Assembly: GCA_965116665.1 (NCBI GenBank)
Contig: OZ220709.1
Location: 2,132,062 to 2,196,061 of the forward strand
Direction: 5' to 3'
Length of the DNA stretch: 64,000 bases
DNA from: Acidimicrobiales bacterium
GTDB taxonomy: Bacteria; Actinomycetota; Acidimicrobiia; Acidimicrobiales; Aldehydirespiratoraceae
Shown here: one piece after another, positions 1,835 through 12,255 of the stretch
Numbering within the stretch: the first letter of the stretch is position 1
Layout of the letters: the number at the start of each line of letters is the position of its first letter
The notes under the pieces: generated by a model
The model's input: the letters and a program-made list of their open reading frames with translations, nothing else
Databases searched by the model: none
Told to the model about the DNA's origin: nothing
Made by a program: the position numbers and the translations under genes

Positions 1835-2171
1835 CCAGAGAGATGTCACACGGTTAGACCGATTTTGATACGGAGTTAGCAAGAAATCGGCATTTCGGCG
1901 GCAGACTCGGGATATTGGCGGCTTCAGCGAAACTGCTGGCGGGTTCGTCGCCGGGATCTTCACCGTCGGCGGGTTGGTTACTGGGTGTTTCGCTGGTTGA
2001 GGCTCACTGTGGCGGTGGTCGGGTTCCCGAATCTCGCGATTCGCGTTTCGAGATCTACAGGCGAGCAGGCATGGGGCCGACCTGACACTCTGAGGGACGA
2101 GATCGGCAGCATCACCAAACCCGCCGGATGGTTACACCTTTCCGCTACTCCGAGGCCCATTCACGCCCATA

Positions 2172-3394
2172 GTGCCTCAGCACCAGGCCGCGAACCTGCT
2201 ATGGGATCCTGTGTTGTCACACCATGTGGGTATGGTGCGAGTTTGTGCACATAGATCGGTCACTGCTGTCGGCCCCTTCGGAAGCCTAGGCCTCGGCTGG
2301 GGAGTCGTGGAGTCTCGGTCTCGACGACGGGACCGGAGTGCGGGTGGCGCGTTCGTCCGCGACAAAGCCTCCCAGCAGATCGACCCAGACCTGTTGACGG
2401 GACGAAGCCAGCCCGTCGAGATGGAAGAGACGCCTGTGCTGGCCGGTGACCGGCCCAGCATTGTGCTGGTCGGCGACGACGCACCGGCGATGGAAGACGC
2501 CACAGACGCGATCCGCCGCAAAGCCAAGTCGCTGCGCAACCAGATCGGGCCGCATCTGCCCGCGGTGCGCCGCGACACCCAGACCCTGAACCCGGATCAC
2601 AAGACCCGCATCCGGCGCGCCCTGCGGAACCAGCCCCGAGACGCCACCGAACCAGCCGAGTTTTCTATCTCGACCGACACCAGGACCGCCACCTTCGCCG
2701 GGGCGTCGTTTCCGCTCGACTACGACCCCGCTCTAGCGGTGTCGGACGCACAACTGATGGTCGAGTACTTCGCGGGCTTCGAAGGGTTTGCAGGCACACC
2801 CGAGGAGGTGTGCGAGCTCCAGGAGGAGTACTTCGCGTTCTGGGCTTGGCTGTACTTCTCGCCATTCATGTGCGATCTGCGCACCTCGACAAGCTCGACG
2901 AAGATGACCAGCCCGAGGACTGGCTGCTGCTCTCATCTACAGTCCTCAGCGAACTGCTCCAAGACCGCGCAACCGGAAGCGTCCCGGGGTGGGCTGCACC
3001 CCAGTCACGCACCCGCTACGCTGAGCGGCGCTACAAGAGCCTCAGGGCCAAGTTCCACCACCTGCTCAGGCCTCCCGCACGGATCGATGCGGACAGCCCC
3101 AAACCCGAGGGATGGTGGATCGACGCCGACGCCGGGCGGGTGGTCGTGCGCGAACGGGTGAACCAATACGGCCAGAGCGCCTTCAACTGGGAACAGGTGC
3201 CCTCCACCATCATCGACGCCGACGCCTCCAGCAGCTGCCACACATCGCTCGTGCTGAGCGAACTCGACAAGTTCCTCCCCAACTGGAAGCACCACAGCCC
3301 TCTATCGGCCCCGGCGCCCGAACCCGAGGTACCAACGGACAAGCTGAGACGCCGCCGCTGGGGGCTCCGGCGTCGCCACGCCCGACGATCCTAG
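2172..3394 (+). pseudogene. Hypothetical protein, apparently frameshifted (two overlapping frames join near 2870-2885)
   Basis: GC3-rich coding signal follows the 2172 frame (likely from ATG 2421) up to about 2880. It then continues in the 2810..3394 frame. Neither frame alone covers the whole coding-like stretch. No recognisable domain. Confidence 0.3.
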
Positions 3395-3649
3395 AGTCTC
3401 AGATGAAGCCTATGGTCCGCTCTGACCGGCGGAGTCCACGGTGGTGATTCGATGATTCCGTCCTTGTAGCCGGGGGCCGGATGCTGGCCCGTTGGCGCTG
3501 ACGGCCAGGCCAGAGCAAGTCGGCAGAATCAATGAACTACCGACCCGGCAGAATCGCCTCGGAGCGCCCCTGCGCAGCATCCACTCATGCGGTGTGTCTT
3601 GGGGCGCAAGGTGGTATCGTTATTGCATCATTCCGAGTAGAACCAGAGT

Positions 3650-6600
3650 GTGCAGCGGATACGATACGGCCCAGGGACGGGACGAATGGTGACAATCTTG
3701 CGAGAGCCACAGCGTAGTTCAGGCGTGTCCGAGGAGTTGTTCCTAGCAGCGCGCCCCTCCAACGGCGGTCAGGCAACCTTCGTGTTGAAGGTGTTTGTGT
3801 CGTCGGTTCTTCAGGGCTACGAGGAGCACCGCGCAGCCATACGTCGGTTGGTTGAGGCGCTCGGCCATGAGGCCGTCCTCATTGGGGAGACCTCACCTGC
3901 GCTCCCGCGTTCTGCACAGCGGGCGTGCCTGGATGCCGTTGCAGCCTGCGATGTGATGGTGCTGGTGCTCGGAGCAAAATACGGCACCGAGCAGCGGTCC
4001 GGGAAGTCGGCGACGCATGAGGAATGGACCCGCGCGCGCGATCTCGGCAAGGAGATCTTGGCCCTCAAGGAGCGAGTCAAGCCCGCCACCAAACAACAAG
4101 CGGACTTCATCCAAGAGGTGCGCGACTACGAGACGGGCGTGTCTTACAAACCGTTCTCGACGCTGCCCGAGATGCAGGAAGAAGTCGTGCGGGCGCTGCG
4201 TCGTGTAGAGCAAGAACGCCGTCGGGCATTCGACTTTGCCCAGCGACTCCCGGAGTCGGTGAGTTCACTGCTCGAGTCGATGCGGACACTGTTCGCGGAC
4301 TCGCTTATCCGAACCCAAGAGGTGATGAGATCCGCTGCTGAGGACACCGGAGCAAACGTTCTTGTGCGGCTTGCCGAGCATCCCCCAGCCTGGGCAACCG
4401 CTCCTGGGCCGCTGGTGTGGGAGGCGCTGTCAGAGTTCGTCGGTGCGGCCGGGCTCGCTGGCGGGAGTCGGATCAGGTCACTGGCGATCGAGGCTGGCTC
4501 CCAGCGCAGCGGTCTCTATTCGGCGCTTAACGCCATCGGGGCAGCCGAGGCCAGCGAAGAGGTGGAACGAGCCTCAGCCGGTGAAGGCGACGATGCCCGA
4601 GATGCCGAGACGCTGGCAGATGCGATCCCGAACGACGATCCGTTGCGCGAGGCGACCGTGGCCAGAGTGCGTCGTGATCCCGACGGAGTGTTGGCGGCCG
4701 TGCGTTCAGCGGCACCCCAAGACTCGGACGATCCTGGAGTGGCTGAGTTGGGAGCGATATTGCTCGCGTGGGCTCACTGCGAATTGGAACGTCCAGAGGA
4801 GGCGCTTTCCGTGCTCGCGGCCGCCAGTGAGACCTATCCCGGCAAGACTCGGCTGCTGTTGGGGCAGGCACGTCTCGCGTTGGCTCTTGGTCTGGCCGCC
4901 GCCGCAACCGAGAACCAGCGTCCGGCCCTTCTCGATCAGGCGCATCGCCGAGCCATGGAAGCTAGAGAGCGCTTGCGGCAATGGGGTGGTCCCTCACGCC
5001 AAGCCGTGTCGATAGCTTGCACGGCACTCGTCGCACTCCATGATCCCAAGCAGGCGCTTCGCATTGGGTTGCCGCTCTCTGAAGGAGAGGCAACCCAGGC
5101 CGAGGCCGCCGACGCAGAAGTCCAGCGGGTCGTTGCCGATGCTCTGCTGTTGACAGGGCGGCACGATGATATAGATCGACTCGCCGTCGAGTCGTTCGAG
5201 CCTTGGCGTCAGGACATGATCCGCGCAATGCAAGCCCACGAACGAGACGATCGGCAGGGTGCGATCCGCATGATGCGCAAGGCACTTGCTCAAGCCTCCG
5301 ACGATGACGCCCGCAAACACGCCACCTTTGGACTCGCGTTGTTCGGCGAGACCGCTGACATGGCAGGCCTTACCCTCACGGACGAGGAGTCAGCGCTGCT
5401 CACCGGGGTTGCCGCGATCCAGCGCGGCAACCCCGATGAAGCCATCGAAGCACTTAAGCAGCATTGGCGAGCCTCACAGATGCATGCGGACTGGCTATGC
5501 CGCGCCCAACGGGACCGCGGCGACATAGCCGCGGCGGTCGAGACACTGCAAGACGCGGTGGCCCATTTCGGGCCTGATCCGCTAAGTGCTGATCTCGTCG
5601 AACTGATGACAGAAGACGGCAGCAACAACAAGGAAGCTGAAGCTGTAGCCGTTGACGCTCTGGCGCGACGCGCCTCGCCAGAAACCAAGCGCCGGCTCAA
5701 GCAGGCGCTCGTGCACCTGGCCCAAGCATCCCAAGCTTGGCACAAGGCCTACGAGCACGCAGCCGCGATGCACAGCGATGACCCGCAGGACTACGGAGCG
5801 GGATGGGCGGCCGTCTTAGCTCTGTATCAGGACGGCCGCTACGACGACGCCCGCCGCTACCTGCTCGCTCACGGCCTGCCTCCAACCACCGAAGACGCGG
5901 CGCGTCTCGCGGCACTCCTGCTCGGGGGTCCTACGGCACCGCAGGTGGACGCGCCGAGTCTGCTTGAGTTGGCAGAACAGTTCCCCGACTCCGAGAAGGT
6001 TCTCGGTTCGATCCTTCAGGCATTGATGACCGGCGGAGAAAGAGTCAGCCTCACGGATGAGCAGGCAGAAGCCACCCGGGAACTACTGGAGGAATTCATC
6101 GAGAGGTTCGAATCCAGCGAGATCCTGTGGCAGGTATCGGCAACCAGTCTCCCGGAACTGGCCGAGCAGTTTCGAGACATGGCGCGCGAGCGCCACAGCG
6201 CTATCAACTGGCAGTTGGTTGGCGATGTGCGGTCCGGGCGAGCCCCCCACGGCTTGTTGTGGGCGCCCACGCGCCCGTATGCGACCGTGCTGCTGGGCAC
6301 GGGGGGGTGCCTGACCGCGGTGAGCGCGAACCCTGAGACGCGACAACGCGAGATCGCAACAGCCCGTGCTGCTCTGGGCGCCACCGTTGTCCTTGACACC
6401 AGCGTCGCTGTTGTGGCTTCGCGCATTGGGATCACCCTCGATCACCTGACCAGGGGATTCGATCGTGTCTTGGTGCCCGATCAGCTACTCACGGACGCCA
6501 GCCGCGCCATCACATACGCCAAGATGACGGGCAACGCGAGTTTGTCCTATGAACCCTCTCTTGACCGGATCATGGTCACGGAGTTCTCCCCAGAGGACAA

Positions 6601-8023
6601 GAACCGCATGGTCGAGTCCGCCGAGACAGTCCTCTCAGGGCTGAAAGCCCAGCAACGACTCCCAAGCAGCGACATCAGACCCGAGTGGTACCCCGTACCA
6701 TCGGATCTCCCGCACACCCTCGACTGGGACGCTGCTCTGCGCATCGCCGCCGTAAAGGGGCTCGCTCTGTGGTGCGACGACGCCGCGATGCGGCATCTCG
6801 CCGACACTGCAGGAGTGGCAACCTTCGGGACATACGCGCTCCACGAGGCACTTGACGAACAGCAAGTGCGCGACCTGCTGCCTGAAAGCATCGACATGCG
6901 CATGCAGTTCATACGGGCCCACCTTGCCGATATCCCGATCAACCTGGAGGAGATGATCCAAGCCACCGACGACAGCGAAGGCCCCGACACGGCTTGGGCG
7001 TTGTGGCTCACACGACCGGCCAGTTGGCAAGACCCGGGCATCGCGTTTACGCGCCATGTGCATCGAATGGAGATGCTCGTAGACGGTCATCTCCTGCGCC
7101 ATGTCCCCGAGTTGGTCTACGCCTCCTGTCTCGGGCTTGGATCCGCTGTGACCGACAGCGAACGGCCAAACGCCATGGGCGCAGTGCTGGCAGGCTCCCT
7201 ACTACAGCTAGAAGACGCAGAGGGGGTGGCAGACCTGCTGGTCGCCAACGCCCGGGCTGCTAGCGCACACCTCGACCCGCGAGGCCGCCCTGACCCGCTG
7301 CCATCCGCAGCCACCATGCTGCTGCAAGCCTACGAAACGGCGACCGATGCATCCGTAGCCGCCCAGAAACTCATCCACGTCTTTTCGCGTCTGCCCTCTG
7401 AGGACCGTCGAATCGTTACCTCTGTGATCCCACATGCCCCCACGAGCGGCAACGAACCAGCCCGAGCGACAACCAGTTCCAAACGCGCCAAGGGTCAGCA
7501 ACGACACAGCGGGCCCCGTCAACAGGCACGTCTCCCTGGTGAGGACGACCTAGCGGCGGCATTGAGAGCGCGACGGAAGAATCTCGGGCTAACCCAACAG
7601 GCTCTTGCCGAGCGCTGCGGCATGCCACGACCTCGCGTTTCCAGCGTCGAGTCCGAGATGGCGCGCCCTCGCATCAGTACTGTCCTGGCACTCGTTCGTG
7701 CGATGCGAAGCTCCCTGTCGCTCGTACCTTCATCTGAGTGCCCGGTCTATCCACGGACCGGCATTACAACCCCCAGCGGTCTCGGACATGCGATTCGCTC
7801 CGTCCGCGGACAACTGCAACTGCGCCAACAAGACCTCGCCGAGCGATCTGGGGTGCACCGAAGCCAGATCTCCAAGATCGAAGCGGGCGGCGACGCCATC
7901 ACCGGAACTGTCCTGCGGCTCGTCGGCGCTTCTGGACTCACACTGCGCCTTGACCATGACGATCCCGAAGCGTTCGTGCTCGAAGATGTCATCGACGCCC
8001 ACACCGGACTCAAGGGATCATGA
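3650..8023 (+). CDS. Giant multidomain protein: DUF4062-like N-terminus, TPR-like helical repeats, PIN-like domain, two C-terminal XRE/HipB-type HTH units
   Basis: Uninterrupted 1457-aa ORF with GC3 bias throughout. N-terminus: KVFVSS..(30 aa)..CDVMVLVLGAKYGTEQRSGKSATHEEW, the DUF4062 pattern. PIN-like signature: VVLDTSV ... DAALRIAAVKGLALWCDDAAM. HTH units: LGLTQQALAERCGMPRPRVSSVE and LQLRQQDLAERSGVHRSQISKIEAG. The stop TGA at 8021-8023 overlaps the hipA ATG. The start is uncertain (ATG 3650, ATG 3686 or GTG 3782). Confidence 0.8.
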   Translation: MQRIRYGPGTGRMVTILREPQRSSGVSEELFLAARPSNGGQATFVLKVFVSSVLQGYEEHRAAIRRLVEALGHEAVLIGETSPALPRSAQRACLDAVAACDVMVLVLGAKYGTEQRSGKSATHEEWTRARDLGKEILALKERVKPATKQQADFIQEVRDYETGVSYKPFSTLPEMQEEVVRALRRVEQERRRAFDFAQRLPESVSSLLESMRTLFADSLIRTQEVMRSAAEDTGANVLVRLAEHPPAWATAPGPLVWEALSEFVGAAGLAGGSRIRSLAIEAGSQRSGLYSALNAIGAAEASEEVERASAGEGDDARDAETLADAIPNDDPLREATVARVRRDPDGVLAAVRSAAPQDSDDPGVAELGAILLAWAHCELERPEEALSVLAAASETYPGKTRLLLGQARLALALGLAAAATENQRPALLDQAHRRAMEARERLRQWGGPSRQAVSIACTALVALHDPKQALRIGLPLSEGEATQAEAADAEVQRVVADALLLTGRHDDIDRLAVESFEPWRQDMIRAMQAHERDDRQGAIRMMRKALAQASDDDARKHATFGLALFGETADMAGLTLTDEESALLTGVAAIQRGNPDEAIEALKQHWRASQMHADWLCRAQRDRGDIAAAVETLQDAVAHFGPDPLSADLVELMTEDGSNNKEAEAVAVDALARRASPETKRRLKQALVHLAQASQAWHKAYEHAAAMHSDDPQDYGAGWAAVLALYQDGRYDDARRYLLAHGLPPTTEDAARLAALLLGGPTAPQVDAPSLLELAEQFPDSEKVLGSILQALMTGGERVSLTDEQAEATRELLEEFIERFESSEILWQVSATSLPELAEQFRDMARERHSAINWQLVGDVRSGRAPHGLLWAPTRPYATVLLGTGGCLTAVSANPETRQREIATARAALGATVVLDTSVAVVASRIGITLDHLTRGFDRVLVPDQLLTDASRAITYAKMTGNASLSYEPSLDRIMVTEFSPEDKNRMVESAETVLSGLKAQQRLPSSDIRPEWYPVPSDLPHTLDWDAALRIAAVKGLALWCDDAAMRHLADTAGVATFGTYALHEALDEQQVRDLLPESIDMRMQFIRAHLADIPINLEEMIQATDDSEGPDTAWALWLTRPASWQDPGIAFTRHVHRMEMLVDGHLLRHVPELVYASCLGLGSAVTDSERPNAMGAVLAGSLLQLEDAEGVADLLVANARAASAHLDPRGRPDPLPSAATMLLQAYETATDASVAAQKLIHVFSRLPSEDRRIVTSVIPHAPTSGNEPARATTSSKRAKGQQRHSGPRQQARLPGEDDLAAALRARRKNLGLTQQALAERCGMPRPRVSSVESEMARPRISTVLALVRAMRSSLSLVPSSECPVYPRTGITTPSGLGHAIRSVRGQLQLRQQDLAERSGVHRSQISKIEAGGDAITGTVLRLVGASGLTLRLDHDDPEAFVLEDVIDAHTGLKGS

Positions 8024-9276
8024 CCAGACTGATCGTTCTGATGCATGGCCGCGTTGCCGGGACTATCAACGACAGCGCTGGAGGTCGCGCTCTGTTTTCC
8101 TATGCCGAGGGCTACAGCGCCACACCCCTGTCAGTCTCAGCCCCCACAACCCGTTCTCAGTTCGATGCAACGCACTGGATCGACGGACTGCTCGCGGACA
8201 ACGAGGACGTCCGCGCACGCTGGCGCTCAGACTATGAAGCCGTATCGGCGCGCCCGATGGATCTTCTAGCGACCCCCATTGGCTGGGATTGCGCTGGCGG
8301 GATCCAATTCTGCAAGCCCGAACAGCTTGACATCCTGTCAGAGCGCGGCGGTTCTATAACGACGCTAAGCGAATCCCAGGTTGCCAGGATCATCGCTCGT
8401 CTCCGATCTGACTCCTCCGCATGGAGCAGTGACCCCGCGGCGGCCGCGTTCAGCCTCGCGGGAGCTCAGTCCAAGACAGCACTTCGCCACACCGATGGCC
8501 GGTGGTCCCGACCGATCGGGGACGCTGCAACCACCCACATCCTCAAACCGGCGCCCGATCGATTTCCGGACCTCGATATTGTCGAGCACCTTTGTTGCGC
8601 AACTGCCTCCAACCTCGGGCTGACGGTCGCCCACACCGAGTGCGTCACGATCGGGGGTGAGCGGGTGCTGAGCGTCACACGCTATGACCGCCGCACCACC
8701 TCGGACGGCGACATAACCCGCGTCCACCAAGAAGACCTATGCCAAGCGCTGGGCATGCCCCCAAGCAAGAAGTACCAGCATGCCGGTGGCCCGACCCCCG
8801 CAACGATTGCGTCGCTGCTAAGGACATACAGCACGCAGCCGGATGAGGATGTGGAGAGATTCAGAGACGCTCTGATCTACAACTGGCTCATCGCTGGCAC
8901 TGACGCTCACGCAAAGAACTACAGCCTCATCCTCGCTGGCGATCAAGCACGACTCGCGCCGCTCTATGACATCTGCTCCTACCTTCCTTACAGGGACACG
9001 AAGCCGATCGGCAAGCTTGACATGGCCATGAAGATCGGACGCGACTACACCATCACTAAGACAAGCCGCCGAAGCGCTTGGGAACGCACAGCCGATGCGT
9101 TGGGGCTAGCGCGCCCCGAGACCCTCGAACGTGTGACAGACCTTGCCAACCGTTTGCCAGCCGCCATGGCGCAAGCGATCGACTGTCTACCTACAGACCA
9201 GCGTTCAAGTGATAAGGTCGCCCTGCTGGCCAAGGACATCAGTAGCCACGCTCCACGATGCGCCACTTTCGCCTGA
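8020..9276 (+). CDS. hipA: HipA-family serine/threonine kinase toxin
   Basis: 418 aa. Contains an N-terminal HipA coupling region (LIVLMHGRVAGT), a GAQSKTAL P-loop-like motif, the catalytic loop DAHAKNYSLIL, and LAPLYDICS (Mg-binding Asp). An SD-like AAGGGA lies upstream. There is a 4-nt ATGA overlap with the upstream ORF. Confidence 0.9.
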   Translation: MTRLIVLMHGRVAGTINDSAGGRALFSYAEGYSATPLSVSAPTTRSQFDATHWIDGLLADNEDVRARWRSDYEAVSARPMDLLATPIGWDCAGGIQFCKPEQLDILSERGGSITTLSESQVARIIARLRSDSSAWSSDPAAAAFSLAGAQSKTALRHTDGRWSRPIGDAATTHILKPAPDRFPDLDIVEHLCCATASNLGLTVAHTECVTIGGERVLSVTRYDRRTTSDGDITRVHQEDLCQALGMPPSKKYQHAGGPTPATIASLLRTYSTQPDEDVERFRDALIYNWLIAGTDAHAKNYSLILAGDQARLAPLYDICSYLPYRDTKPIGKLDMAMKIGRDYTITKTSRRSAWERTADALGLARPETLERVTDLANRLPAAMAQAIDCLPTDQRSSDKVALLAKDISSHAPRCATFA

Positions 9277-9451
9277 GCTCCTACTCAGCTAAAGCAGCCA
9301 CGCTAGAAGAAGGACAGCGAACCCACAGTAGGGACAAAGCAGAGGAGCCTTGAACCGGGCACTCGTCTTGGAGAACGACCTACTGGCTGCAACTGTCGGC
9401 TGGTCGTGCATTTCTGGGGAATCGGGCCTCGCGATTTGGGGAATGTCCCAA

Positions 9452-9510
9452 AATCGGCGCTAGAACACCCTCGATGACCTCCCCGAACGTAACTGTGTGA
9501 CAACTCACCA
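9452..9510 (+). repeat. Left copy of an imperfect direct repeat (partner at 12540-12613)
   Basis: AATCGGCGCTAGAACACCCTCGATGACCTCCCCGAACG..AACTGTGTGACAACTCACCA matches the leader of the crotonase gene, apart from a 19-nt gap and a few substitutions. Confidence 0.8.
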
Positions 9511-9572
9511 GATACAGAAATAGGCGCTGCGCGAATTCGTGGGATGTGAGGTTGCTGGCACCGGTGGGGTGA

Positions 9573-10284
9573 TTATGTCACGAGGAGGCCGCGGGCTTCG
9601 AAGTTGTCGGGGTTGGTGAAGCCGTGGGCGGTGCGCCTGAGGACTTGCAGCAGGTTGTTGGTGCCTTTGATTCTGCCGTTTGAGGGGCGGCCTGCGTGGT
9701 GCCATGCGAGGATCTCGTCTGACCAGGCGATGAAGGTGTCGACGATGTCGTGGAACTCGGGCAGCTCGCCGGTCTCGTAGAGGTCGCGGAACCGTCCGAG
9801 GGCGCCGTGGTGGTCGCCGGCGGGGCAGAGGCCGTGCAGCTCCTGGAGGGCGGCGCCGCTCGGCGACGATCCCGGCGAAGGCCCGCACCAAGGCGTTGAT
9901 CTTGTGCCAGCCGACACCGCGCCGGCGCGCCGCGGCGCGCAGCGTCATCACCTTGGCGTCCGCCACCAGAGCCCGCGCCAGCCGCGCCGTCAGCGCGCCC
10001 TCGAACGCGCAATGGTCCCCCAAGAACCGGCTGCCGCAACTGTCACAGACCATCCGCCGCCGCACCCACAACAGCGTCGTGCGCCGACCCGACACCTCCA
10101 GATCGGTGACCTTCTTGTCGCGGCGGTCATGGACCCTGTGACAGCGGAACCCACACATCGCGCACCGCAGCCGCCTCAGCGTCGACTCGACCGCCACCAC
10201 AGGGCGCGCCGCGGTGTCCTCGACCACCCCCAACACCCGAATCTGCCGCAGATGAAGCCGCACCGACACAACATCGCTGGCCAT
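9573..10284 (-). mobile_element. ISL3-family transposase remnant (internal deletion/frameshift; DDE core missing)
   Basis: N-terminal zinc-finger/HTH part: CAMCGFRC..VCDSCGSRF, LTARLARALVADAKVMTLRAAARRRGVGWHKINALV. It is joined out of frame to the C-terminal part: ..FIAWSDEILAWHHAGRPSNGRIKGTNNLLQVLRRTAHGFTNPDNFEARGLL. About 200 aa of catalytic core is absent. Confidence 0.75.
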
Positions 10285-10497
10285 CGAGGCCCTCCTGGAT
10301 CAGTGGATCTGACAATCACCGATCCCAGCAGGGCCTCGACCCCTCAACGGGGACCCTCAACCACCCCGCTCCCCACGTTCACGCGCAGGCTCGACAACTC
10401 ACCAACCAACAGCAATTCGCGACTGGGGTCGGTGGCAGCCCGCCGGGGCTGCGTAGTAGATTGTTCGTACTGCCCCTATCGCTTCGCCGGTAGGGTC

Positions 10498-10523
10498 GAG
10501 ACCGCCCTTCGAAGGGCGGTCTC
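10498..10523 (+). terminator. Perfect 10-bp stem hairpin, possible orphan intrinsic terminator
   Basis: GAGACCGCCC-TTCGAA-GGGCGGTCTC followed by TGTCTTTGG. There is no convincing upstream plus-strand gene, so its function is unclear. Confidence 0.3.
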
Positions 10524-10732
10524 TGTCTTTGGAGGTGCGGCATTGATCGCGAGAGAATGAGAACGAGAGCAGATCAGGATAGTGGTGGTCCTCGTAGACG
10601 TTGAGAGCATGTTCAAAGTCGCAGTTGAACAGCGTGGAGTAGACTGAGCAACAGCTTCCGAGGGTCGAGCCCTAGGCGCTGGTAGCGGGTCGCTACGTCT
10701 CTCAGTTGAGGCACGGTTGGACGGTCGAGCCC

Positions 10733-11275
10733 CTACGCGCTTGTAGCGGGTTGCGAGGATGCCTGCTCTGAAATGTTGGTCTCGAAGCGCTGCACGAGGT
10801 CACGGTATATGTCCTCCGATTCTTGGAGTCTGGTCCCCAGGTCCGCTAGCAGACACCTTGCCTCGCGCTGCTCTTCCGCGTATTTCGCGCCTACGGGTAG
10901 GTGTAGCAACATCGCTGCGAACAAGGAGCCGGGCATCTCCTCGCTCTCTTGGTGGGCTCTGCGGGTGTTGGTGGTCAGCGGGATGCGCTCGTTGTCGAAC
11001 ACGGCGGTCACCTCGAGGTGGCCACCCATTCCTTCGACCGCCATCCGCAGAGTCGACACCAGGTTGTCGGCGGCGGTCTCCATTGCCGACACGGACGCCT
11101 GGGCGCGTTCAAGGCGCCGAGCCAACTCGGTCTGGGTGAGATTGCGGTGCTGGCGCAGTTCCTTGAGGGTGTAGGCCACCGTCTCGGCGCGGGCTTCTTC
11201 CTTGAGAGCCTCAACCCGGGCGCGCTGCTCAGGGGTCAAGTCGCCGACGAGTTCATCGAAGTCGTAGTAGGTCAT
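10733..11275 (-). CDS. XRE-family HTH antitoxin-like protein with an extended C-terminal domain (HigA-like)
   Basis: 180 aa. HTH motif: LKELRQHRNLTQTELARRLERAQASVSAMET. Located 50 nt downstream of a RelE/HigB-like toxin ORF on the same strand. Confidence 0.7.
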   Translation of the reverse strand: MTYYDFDELVGDLTPEQRARVEALKEEARAETVAYTLKELRQHRNLTQTELARRLERAQASVSAMETAADNLVSTLRMAVEGMGGHLEVTAVFDNERIPLTTNTRRAHQESEEMPGSLFAAMLLHLPVGAKYAEEQREARCLLADLGTRLQESEDIYRDLVQRFETNISEQASSQPATSA

Positions 11276-11324
11276 GTGAGGGGTCTCCTGTGGTGGGTTG
11301 AGGGGCGCATCGTGGGGCTGCTGG

Positions 11325-11696
11325 CTACGGGTCTGGGAGTTCGCCTTGGGATCGGAGATCGGCCAAGTACTGCTCGTACAGGCGCTCTGCTTTCGGGATG
11401 GCGCTCCGGTACCAGTCGTTCCATTGTCGGGCTTTGCTGCCTCCGAACAACAGGATCGCCTGCCGGAGTGGGTCGAACATGAACAGGATGCGCAGGTCCC
11501 TGCCCGCGCCGCGGGGTCTGAGTTCCTTCATGTTCTGATATCGGGAGTTGTGGATCCGTTCGACGATGGGACGCCCCTGCGTCGGGCCGCCTTCGCGTAG
11601 CAGATCTAGGGCTGCGATGAACGAGAGCCTCTCTTCTTCGTTGAGCGACTCCTGCCATGACTTCACCTGGGCTGTCGCCTTGATCTCCCACGCCAC
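11325..11696 (-). CDS. RelE/ParE-superfamily toxin (HigB / Gp49-like)
   Basis: WEIKATAQVKSWQESL..GGPTQGRPIVERIHNSRYQNMKELRPRGAGRDLRILFMFDPLRQAILLFGGSKA matches the Gp49/HigB-type pattern. The likely start is GTG at 11696; the ORF track extends to 11816. Confidence 0.7.
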   Translation of the reverse strand: MAWEIKATAQVKSWQESLNEEERLSFIAALDLLREGGPTQGRPIVERIHNSRYQNMKELRPRGAGRDLRILFMFDPLRQAILLFGGSKARQWNDWYRSAIPKAERLYEQYLADLRSQGELPDP

Positions 11697-11838
11697 CAAC
11701 CCAGTATAGGGTTGACTTGATATAGGTGCTACTTGTGCCAATGGCCGGTCACGGCCCGTTGCGCTATACGGCCGCGACTGGCATGGCGAAGCACACTCTG
11801 TGTGAAAGCTCACCAACCATCAGTCGTCGCGATTCGCG

Positions 11839-12255
11839 CTATGCGTGGACGATGAAGGCTTGACGGCGGTCGCGGCCGAACCGGTAGATCGAGTAGTCCC
11901 GGTCGAACGAGATCGCCCCGTGCACGCCGAGGCGCTGCATGATCGACCAACTCGTGCGATCGACGATCGAGAACTGCTGGTCCGCGAACGCGTCGTGGGT
12001 CTGCGCGGCGATCTCGAGATCGGCGATCGTGGCGGCCTCGACGCGGGCCCTGCCGGCGCGGATCGCGGTGACCAGTGTCTCGGCGACATCGACGCCGAGA
12101 CGGCTCGCGGCCAGGAACCACGTCTCGACGAGCACGTGGTCGCTCGTCAGCAGATCGCCGGAGAACTCGCTGAGCCGCTCGACGGCTCGGCGGTGATGGG
12201 CGTCGCTGAGGTCGGCCGCCGCGTACCACGCAGACGTGTCGACGAAGACGCTCAC
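11839..12255 (-). CDS. vapC: PIN-domain ribonuclease toxin VapC
   Basis: 138 aa. Motifs: VFVDTSAWYA (first acidic residue), SDHVLVETW, FSIVDRTSWSIM, AISFDRDY. There is a 4-nt overlap with the upstream RHH antitoxin. Confidence 0.85.
   Translation of the reverse strand: MSVFVDTSAWYAAADLSDAHHRRAVERLSEFSGDLLTSDHVLVETWFLAASRLGVDVAETLVTAIRAGRARVEAATIADLEIAAQTHDAFADQQFSIVDRTSWSIMQRLGVHGAISFDRDYSIYRFGRDRRQAFIVHA

Follow-up and report, generated by a model that had tools for sequence, protein, structure and literature searches.

The window analysed here is a stretch of 64,000 nucleotides from an Acidimicrobiales bacterium (contig OZ220709.1). Its plus strand carries a gene pair that consists of a large fusion gene (3686..8023) and hipA (8020..9276). 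The fusion gene codes for a protein with an N-terminal DUF4062 domain, a helical region of tetratricopeptide repeats (TPR), a PIN nuclease domain and a C-terminal tail of two HipB-like helix-turn-helix (HTH) units. The product of hipA is a full-length HipA Ser/Thr kinase of 418 amino acids (aa). In our reading, to which we give a probability of roughly 55%, the pair is an autoregulated abortive-infection module: an immune protein of the TGP family would sit inside a hipBA unit, hold HipA on the sensor and free it upon infection.

The open reading frame (ORF) of the large gene extends from 3650 to 8023 (+) and counts 1457 codons from a GTG without interruption. An earlier note on this DNA, made from the sequence alone, had counted the gene from this GTG. 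The frame exists, but GTG 3650 is probably not the true start. ATG 3686 is the likely start, which gives a protein of 1445 aa, because the gene calls for an identical protein (P0001, 100% identity) begin there and because GTG 3650 falls inside a conserved palindrome. In the following, Pfam domain limits are given in the 1457-aa ORF numbering, and the residues E129, D904, D937 and D1031/D1032 in the 1445-aa numbering. The two genes share an ATGA overlap at 8020-8023 (GGATC-ATGA-CC, 8015-8025), in which the ATG of hipA occupies 8020-8022 and the TGA of the fusion gene 8021-8023. Both ORFs, their overlap and the unbroken course of the large one are present as the earlier note had claimed.

Relatives were searched for among 5.8 billion proteins, and a family alignment (A1) was built from this search space. 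The identical full-length architecture occurs in 22 protein clusters of 46-100% identity, which come from independent ENA, JGI and Logan assemblies and include multi-megabase contigs. As the same unbroken ORF recurs in these independent clusters at such divergence, a frameshift or misassembly of separate ordinary genes is virtually ruled out. The fusion protein lacks the Walker A motif [AG]xxxxGK[ST], and the Pfam and NCBIfam scans of it gave no NTPase family. A STAND/NLR-type NTPase, which the note had already rejected, was hence dropped as a reading.

Domains of the fusion protein

DUF4062 is, according to three 2026 preprints, the TIR-like NADase effector of the antiphage systems Swarozyc, NIR-Avs2, Vulcan, Vesta and Evangelion, and the NADase is phage-triggered in Swarozyc, Avs2, Vulcan and Vesta. 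In the fusion protein, the DUF4062/NIR domain lies at 3788..4210 (+; Pfam PF13271, E 3.9e-19, aa 47-129). The putative catalytic glutamate is E129 in the motif ILALKE (window 4070-4072), and this residue is invariant in 16 family members. The best PDB sequence match of the domain is the DUF4062 of KpSwz, a weak pairwise match (E 0.27) in which the catalytic Glu of KpSwz aligns with E129 to within one residue. This Glu is E97 in the paper; with a tag offset of 4 residues assumed, it corresponds to E101 of the PDB chain. We regard the DUF4062 of the fusion protein as a putative NADase.

The region that follows (4253..5995, +) is predicted to form TPR-like helical repeats and is a putative sensor or scaffold. 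Single-sequence Pfam TPR matches are weak (aa ~370-650), but with a profile of aa ~660-830 built from the family, consensus TPR proteins are found at E 2.6e-44, a strong match. TPR_14/19/16 matches occur in 7-12 of 25 family members.

The PIN nuclease domain (6374..6871, +) matches PF20698, the "PIN domain associated with the TPR-GreAB-C-PIN system", at aa 914-1052 with E 2e-10, which is above the curated cut-off, and all 38 of the 38 relatives scanned match this family. Its acidic residues D904 (6395-6397), D937 and D1031/D1032 (6776-6781) are conserved in the family. An AlphaFold2 (AF2) model of aa 800-1062, computed from a 38-sequence alignment, reached a predicted local distance difference test score (pLDDT) of 91. 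With this model, Foldseek retrieved PIN/VapC/SMG6 structures (3ix7 at 4e-4, plus 1o4w, 5h4h and 5ecw). The domain is preceded by a pre-PIN segment (5996..6373, +) of predicted short helices and coil, at the position of the GreA/B-C domain reported for TGP proteins. An earlier AF2 run with an 8-sequence alignment (pLDDT 67) had left this segment unresolved, and the 38-sequence alignment resolved it. In the resulting model, residues 1-97 of the slice, i.e., the ~100 aa ahead of the PIN, are helical or coil; the ~40 aa at 760-800 were modelled at low confidence only. A post-PIN helical domain (6908..7435, +; AF2 helices with pLDDT about 70-90) ends the constant TGP core.

PF20698 goes back to work by Kaur, Iyer, Burroughs and Aravind (eLife 2021, 10:e70394, PMC8195603). 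They describe a TGP core with one of 13 exchangeable effectors ahead of it, among which are TIR, PNPase, SIR2, REase and HNH, and characterise the members as "mostly standalone genes with few conserved neighbours" (PMC8195603). The name "TGP" comes from a 2024 preprint, in which Agp and its partner Bab are an abortive-infection system against T5 (bioRxiv 2024.11.07.622273). An exhaustive HMMER search with alignment A3 (aa 770-1262) yielded 746 representative relatives that share the core; it was used in place of a search with the core sub-alignment A2, which had returned a single fragment. Among 108 relatives, more than 15 unrelated kinds of N-terminal region occur, including an unknown helical module (29), HTH+PNP_UDP (26, the second commonest), DUF4062 (10), REase-like domains (10), DUF4365, NNH1 and others. 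Swappable N-terminal effectors on a constant core are the pattern published for TGP.

On these sequence features, the first ~1250 aa of the fusion protein belong to the described TGP conflict-protein family, because they combine the PF20698 PIN marker, the TPR region, the constant core and the variable N-terminus; the GreA/B-C feature was not used for the assignment. The scaffold with its effector domains, as the earlier note had drawn it, is present, but it is not an orphan, since it belongs to this family and carries a DUF4062 that has now been characterised as a NADase. The single domains were recovered as well, with Pfam matches for DUF4062 and the two tandem XRE-type HTH units, the family-profile match for the TPR-like repeats, and AF2 with Foldseek for the PIN.

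Some TGP relatives carry other N-terminal HTH domains (P0024, P0079). P0024, from Kribbella (L005, 6001-10554), is a 1517-aa TGP relative with an N-terminal IclR/MarR-type HTH and a PNP_UDP phosphorylase, and it lies near a caspase-like (Peptidase_C14)/EACC1 pair.

The double-HipB tail and its kinase

Among 108 full-length relatives, 104 end no more than 30 aa past the post-PIN helical domain, which is where a linker begins here. An extension of 195-224 aa occurs only in the subfamily of P0001, P0016 and P0022. The other long exception, P0037, carries an unrelated 385-aa extension with an MNT-like nucleotidyltransferase. The linker of the fusion protein (7436..7546, +) is an R/P/S-rich low-complexity segment and probably a disordered tether. 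Across the family its length is 37-70 aa, R/P/S/G/T/A/Q/K make up 73-95% of it, and it is poorly conserved.

Pfam places two HTH_3 units after the linker, at aa 1300-1357 and 1379-1422. Unit 1 (7547..7741, +) consists of an XRE-type HTH and a predicted beta-strand, SLSLV, and matches HTH_3 and TIGR03070 (E 1.8e-18). Unit 2 (7772..8020, +; HTH_3/HTH_19) consists of an XRE-type HTH, the beta-strand LTLRL and an acidic C-terminal tail, whose motif DHDDxxAFxLEDVI is conserved in the family. The two units are 40% identical to each other. TIGR03070 (couple_hipB, Y4mF/HipB-type antitoxin) is the best NCBIfam model for the tail as a whole, with 66.2 bits just below the cut-off of 71.65. The family profile of the tail matches the E. 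coli HipB chains 2wiu_B and 5k98_B over residues 7-71 (E about 5e-5). The C-terminal HTH region is thus HipB-type at the profile level. These two matches, together with a free-standing tail with HipA in another locus (L012, see below), support the earlier proposal that an antitoxin or repressor is joined to a large sensor scaffold. With its two HipB units, the tail may amount to a covalent HipB dimer, i.e., a single-chain pseudo-dimer.

The kinase itself is of the ordinary full-length type. HipA_C is matched with E 4e-53, the HipA N-terminal domain (Couple_hipA) is present, and the protein aligns end to end with the E. coli HipA structure 2wiu_A (residues 1-396, E 5e-46). Its P-loop/autophosphorylation motif (8449-8484), the catalytic loop DAHAKN (8899-8925) and the Mg-binding LYD (8953-8973), all on the plus strand, are in register with E. 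coli HipA (S-x-AGAQxKTAL, TDxHAKN, PxYDI). Hence, the hallmarks from which the note had recognised a HipA are genuine. An intact full-length kinase with all catalytic motifs is kept in every fused-locus copy.

HipA kinases autophosphorylate and have several substrates (PMC11717353, PMC9948734). As a Ser/Thr-rich linker lies beside the putative HipA docking site, and as such multiple substrates and autophosphorylation are known, HipA could act as a regulator of the sensor. It would then phosphorylate the fusion protein at the linker, the NADase or the PIN and switch these effectors, instead of poisoning translation. We consider this highly improbable. No conserved Ser/Thr position is prominent in the linker, the kinase is a canonical long HipA with 54% identity to the partners of ordinary HipBs, and the free-standing L012 version lacks such a substrate.

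The pairing of the two genes is conserved. In six different neighbourhoods, at 46-91% identity, hipA follows the fusion gene with a 4-bp overlap. These neighbourhoods are a low-GC island next to a tRNA-Val in the window, the inside of a trp operon (L001), sites that adjoin polA (L002) and uvrD (L003/L004), a Candidatus Aldehydirespirator metagenome-assembled genome (MAG) of the Acidimicrobiales (L006), and a site with EPSP synthase and IS1595 (L018/L019). The partner HipAs form a separate group with 66-100% identity, and the next HipAs are at most 54% identical. Upstream of these more distant kinases (54% identity) lie ordinary HipBs of 98-114 aa with a single HTH. It is well supported that the fusion gene and hipA are a two-gene mobile cassette.

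A scan of genome contigs with the single protein as query gave no relatives, and with alignment A1 it gave two Ca. Aldehydirespirator MAG loci only, plus one spurious HTH match. So far, the fusion with HipA is confined to one small clade of Acidimicrobiia-type bacteria, all of them uncultured. A 1311-aa TGP paralogue with an unassigned N-terminus, without the tail and without HipA, is encoded in a second Ca. Aldehydirespirator MAG (L007, 3352-13555). It has a RelA_SpoT-domain protein on one side and a 1195-aa Eco57I/MmeI-like methyltransferase-type protein on the other.

Operator, free-standing variant and genomic surroundings

An operator-like imperfect palindrome of 54 bp (3614..3667, +) precedes the fusion gene. 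It has the form GTATCGT...N40...ACGATAC with inner half-sites of the TGCAyCA type, and it probably overlaps the promoter and the 5' end of the gene. Six fused loci (the window, L001, L002, L003, L006 and L018) share this two-part palindrome, GTAyCGwTT..GCAACAT-N18-ATGTTGC..AACGnTAC, immediately ahead of the gene, and in L001 its 18-nt arms are perfect. Each arm contains two sub-sites about 11 bp apart, a spacing that would suit one tandem HTH pair per arm. A scan for sigma-70 promoters found nothing, a result that is to be expected in an actinobacterial genome and hence uninformative. A perfect 10-nt direct repeat, CGGCAGAATC, was observed at 3521-3530 and 3546-3555, i.e., with a 25-nt spacing and ~60-90 bp upstream of the palindrome.

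A conserved operator upstream of all copies would also suit a purely regulatory role. The tail would then be an autorepressor that limits the NADase/PIN protein, and HipA would be a co-repressor or an ordinary persistence-type toxin without immune signalling. Complexes of E. coli HipA, HipB and operator, of which Schumacher et al. determined structures, are reportedly the established repressing species. The other N-terminal HTH domains in the TGP relatives P0024 and P0079 point in the same direction. However, an HTH by itself would suffice for autoregulation, and a full-length kinase with all catalytic motifs in every copy implies that kinase activity is under selection. Hence, regulation as the sole function appears unlikely.

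L012 contains a free-standing version of the unit. A 174-aa double HipB and HipA occupy the same trp-operon position as the fused locus L001, with a flanking TrpF that is 86% identical. The double HipB is 66% identical to the L001 tail, and the L012 HipA is 78% identical to the L001 HipA. Two tandem copies of the palindrome (5325-5380 and 5414-5470) lie ahead of the double hipB, whereas the fused loci have one. The DNA homology between L001 and L012 spans the operator, ceases, and restarts at the first HTH. Because it stops after the operator and resumes there, operator, double hipB and hipA are a self-contained cassette, and comparison of the loci gives good support to the view that in the fused loci the immune ORF is placed in frame between operator and antitoxin.

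A HipA neighbour-joining tree without bootstrap places the kinases of L012 and L001 as sisters at the base of the remaining fused-family kinases. The most parsimonious reading of L012 is that the immune part was lost secondarily and in frame. Whichever direction the change took, the tail alone is a viable and sufficient HipA partner, because L012 has only the double HipB and HipA. The locus is thus a natural counterpart of the test with only the C-terminal HTH fragment that the earlier note had suggested.

The autonomy of the toxin-antitoxin (TA) part in L012 also fits a guard or addiction arrangement without active release. In this case, HipA would arrest the cell when a presumably labile fusion antitoxin is lost or destroyed through phage shut-off, degradation or loss of the cassette, and the TGP part would defend alone. 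This corresponds to classical type II TA logic, in which the antitoxin is the labile partner, and the probably disordered, protease-accessible linker ahead of the tail would agree with it. The cassette is mobile, with six contexts and adjoining insertion sequence (IS) elements, and tail-less TGP relatives work as standalone genes (PMC8195603). A covalent in-frame fusion would be superfluous for such a purpose, however, as adjacent genes would do, and the fusion has nonetheless been kept over 46-100% identity. We therefore consider this arrangement, although it is the main rival, rather doubtful, and less probable than an abortive-infection module that frees HipA upon infection.

In the window, the cassette lies in a ~10-kb low-GC stretch (about 2000-12000) that follows a tRNA-Val(TAC) at 1760-1837. 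The GC content of this stretch is 0.62-0.645, compared with about 0.70 elsewhere in the window. The tRNA-adjacent island described in the earlier note is thus supported. No tRNA-derived direct repeat of at least 13 nt that would bound it was found. The other TA modules that the note had placed nearby were not recovered: Pfam and NCBIfam scans of ten neighbouring ORFs gave an ISL3 transposase fragment and one XRE-HTH ORF only. The fragment (9505-10284, -), just downstream of hipA, is a truncated ISL3-family transposase that matches the N-terminal ~137 of ~370 residues plus the zinc ribbon. IS elements also lie beside relatives (IS1595 in L018, ISL3 in L017). The XRE-HTH ORF (10733-11275, -) codes for 180 aa with weak HipB/MqsA-type matches. 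A 139-aa ORF without family match (11272-11691, -) lies upstream of it with a 4-bp overlap. The two (10733-11691) possibly form a small TA-like pair, the sole candidate for the further TA modules of the note.

Among relatives without the tail, the closest are DUF4062-TPR-PIN proteins of about 1200 aa, e.g., P0028 and P0033. The contexts of tail-less relatives are defence-like or mobile and include Fic/Abi_C/DUF1156, SIR2_2/ISL3 and type I restriction-modification (R-M). In L009 (3781-8627), a gene for a 407-aa Fic-domain protein overlaps the start of P0028 (1208 aa) by 4 bp, and a second Fic gene, Abi_C and DUF1156 are nearby. Here, a further TA-toxin-like enzyme (Fic) is coupled to a TGP protein. 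P0033 adjoins a SIR2_2 protein and an ISL3 transposase. In L010 (5001-10768), P0037 combines an REase-like N-terminus with its 385-aa C-terminal extension, in which the MNT-type nucleotidyltransferase (NTP_transf_2/Polbeta) is found. An overlapping 226-aa ORF follows, and the locus lies between hsdM and hsdR of a type I R-M system. With the P0037 extension, an antitoxin-like domain may have been fused to the TGP C-terminus a second time and independently.

Proposed mechanism and comparison with known systems

In the abortive-infection module that we propose, the double-HipB tail would bind the 54-bp palindrome with one tandem tail per arm and repress the operon. HipA would be translated by re-initiation at the ATGA overlap and captured at once by the tail of the newly made protein, so that the kinase is kept inactive on the sensor and on the DNA. 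Release would follow when the TPR/PIN core senses a phage cue or when the disordered linker is cleaved. The freed HipA would phosphorylate an aminoacyl-tRNA synthetase, and translation would stop. In parallel, the NADase would deplete NAD+, and the PIN RNase would possibly be active too. The outcome would be a growth arrest of the abortive-infection type. The translation block is proposed in analogy to E. coli HipA, which targets GltX, and HipT, which targets TrpS. DNA binding, the neutralisation of HipA by the tail and the kinase target are inferred.

The reading as a defence system is supported because the TGP core family includes an experimentally proven antiphage member, Bab/Agp. At the sequence level, catalytic residues are intact in all three enzymes, i.e., NADase E129, the PIN Asp residues and the HipA motifs. 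Tentatively, we also consider a three-armed effector possible. Here, HipA would be a true output of the innate-immune sensor. The TGP core would sense infection, a conformational or proteolytic change in the linker would free HipA from the single-chain HipB, and translation arrest by the kinase, NAD+ depletion and RNA cleavage would all arise from one autoregulated complex.

Several points weigh against the abortive-infection reading. What triggers the module and how HipA is released is a matter of pure inference. The pair, whose co-occurrence and location in defence islands the earlier note had wished to see checked, is adjacent in six contexts, but several of the fused loci lie in housekeeping neighbourhoods (trp operon, polA, uvrD) and not in defence islands. 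PADLOC gave no defence-system assignment in the window, with generic HTH models and weak PDC-M03A models for HipA as its only matches. Pairwise BLASTP of the tail against E. coli HipB gave no match, and the likeness is at the profile level only. The loss of the immune part in L012 indicates that the hipBA unit can do without it. All fusion members come from uncultured Acidimicrobiia-type MAGs or metagenomes and are known from sequence alone. The taxonomic range is narrow.

The GreA/B-C domain, which is the basis of the published RNA polymerase (RNAP)-sensing model for TGP proteins (Kaur et al. 2021, PMC8195603), is a further point of this kind. PF01272 had no match in 63 member slices (38 of aa ~800-1062 and 25 of aa ~660-830; Pfam, E<=10). 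An hhalign comparison with E. coli GreA gave a probability of 0.1. No GreA/Gfh1 fold was among the Foldseek matches of the AF2 model, and a PDB profile search with aa 660-830 returned TPR proteins only and no GreA/B-C. Because the domain was undetected by Pfam, profile, hhalign and AF2 with Foldseek, we do not claim RNAP sensing for the fusion protein. The pre-PIN segment is homologous across the whole family, and the fusion protein shares whatever published TGP members have there.

What HipBA, the textbook TA system of persistence, does in nature is still under debate. The fusion gives a directly testable link between the HipA kinase and phage defence. It is an example of the joining of a TA module and a defence sensor, in which the sensor ORF is inserted between operator and antitoxin, and L012 provides a natural tail-only control at the same chromosomal site in a sister lineage. 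The single-chain double HipB should be useful for structural work on HipA inhibition and operator recognition. The TGP family, described so far as standalone, gains a conserved partner gene, and the fast-growing DUF4062/NIR effector family gains a new architecture. If the three-armed effector is true, it would be the first case, within the literature searched, of a large defence protein that has a classical TA antitoxin domain as its "toxin holster". The insertion between operator and antitoxin would then show a way in which immune sensors recruit TA modules, with similar hints in the MNT-like fusion of P0037 and the coupled Fic of L009.

Gerdes et al. (mBio 2021) listed 10 genetic organisations for HipA-family kinases. 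No large multidomain HipB fusion is among them, and the words "fused", "tandem", "PIN" and "TPR" do not occur in the text. The accessible part of the supplementary text of Kaur et al., with thousands of TGP entries, contains no "HipA", "GreAB-C+PIN+HTH" or "DrHyd+TPR+GreAB-C+PIN", where DrHyd is their name for DUF4062. The three 2026 DUF4062 preprints make no mention of PIN, HipA or a kinase partner, and full-text literature searches found no paper that describes the DUF4062-TPR-PIN-HipB/HipA combination. All components are known by themselves, but no description appears to exist of their combination, of a double HipB in a single chain or of such an insertion between operator and antitoxin. 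The note's view of the partner architecture as undescribed therefore stands, with the fusion to HipB/HipA as the only new part.

E. coli-type HipBA: Both systems have a full-length HipA with the N-terminal subdomain and all kinase motifs, and an XRE-type HipB-like HTH with a beta-strand that is encoded directly upstream and translationally coupled. Palindromic operators lie upstream in both, here at the sequence level. The E. coli-type antitoxin is a free ~90-aa homodimer, whereas here one chain contains two HipB-like units, which the probably disordered linker ties to the C-terminal end of an NADase-TPR-PIN protein of ~1250 aa.

HipBST and HipH/YjjJ: The tripartite HipBST and the HTH-fused HipH/YjjJ are likewise Hip variants, with the HTH or antitoxin functions allotted differently to the polypeptides. 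Unlike in HipBST, HipA keeps its N-terminal subdomain here, and no HipS is split off. Unlike in HipH/YjjJ, the HTH is fused to an unrelated immune protein and not to the kinase.

TGP systems: The fusion protein shares with them the PF20698 PIN, the preceding TPR region, the constant C-terminal core, the swappable N-terminal effector and relatives in defence-like contexts. TGP systems typically end after the core and are standalone, whereas here a ~195-aa linker and double HipB follow, with an obligate HipA partner. Their GreA/B-C domain is undetected in the fusion subfamily.

DUF4062/NIR proteins: Swarozyc, NIR-Avs2, Vulcan (NIR plus HEAT repeats) and Vesta have the same N-terminal DUF4062 with the conserved catalytic Glu, fused to a helical-repeat putative sensor in a single large polypeptide. 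In comparison, the fusion protein adds the TGP PIN core, the HipB tail and the HipA partner.

CapRel(SJ46) and PARIS: In the fused CapRel(SJ46) and in PARIS AriA-AriB, the toxin-neutralising element is part of the phage sensor or bound to it, and sensing frees the toxin. The concept is alike, but the proteins and folds are unrelated. Here, the toxin would be a HipA kinase, and the sensor itself carries two further putative effectors.

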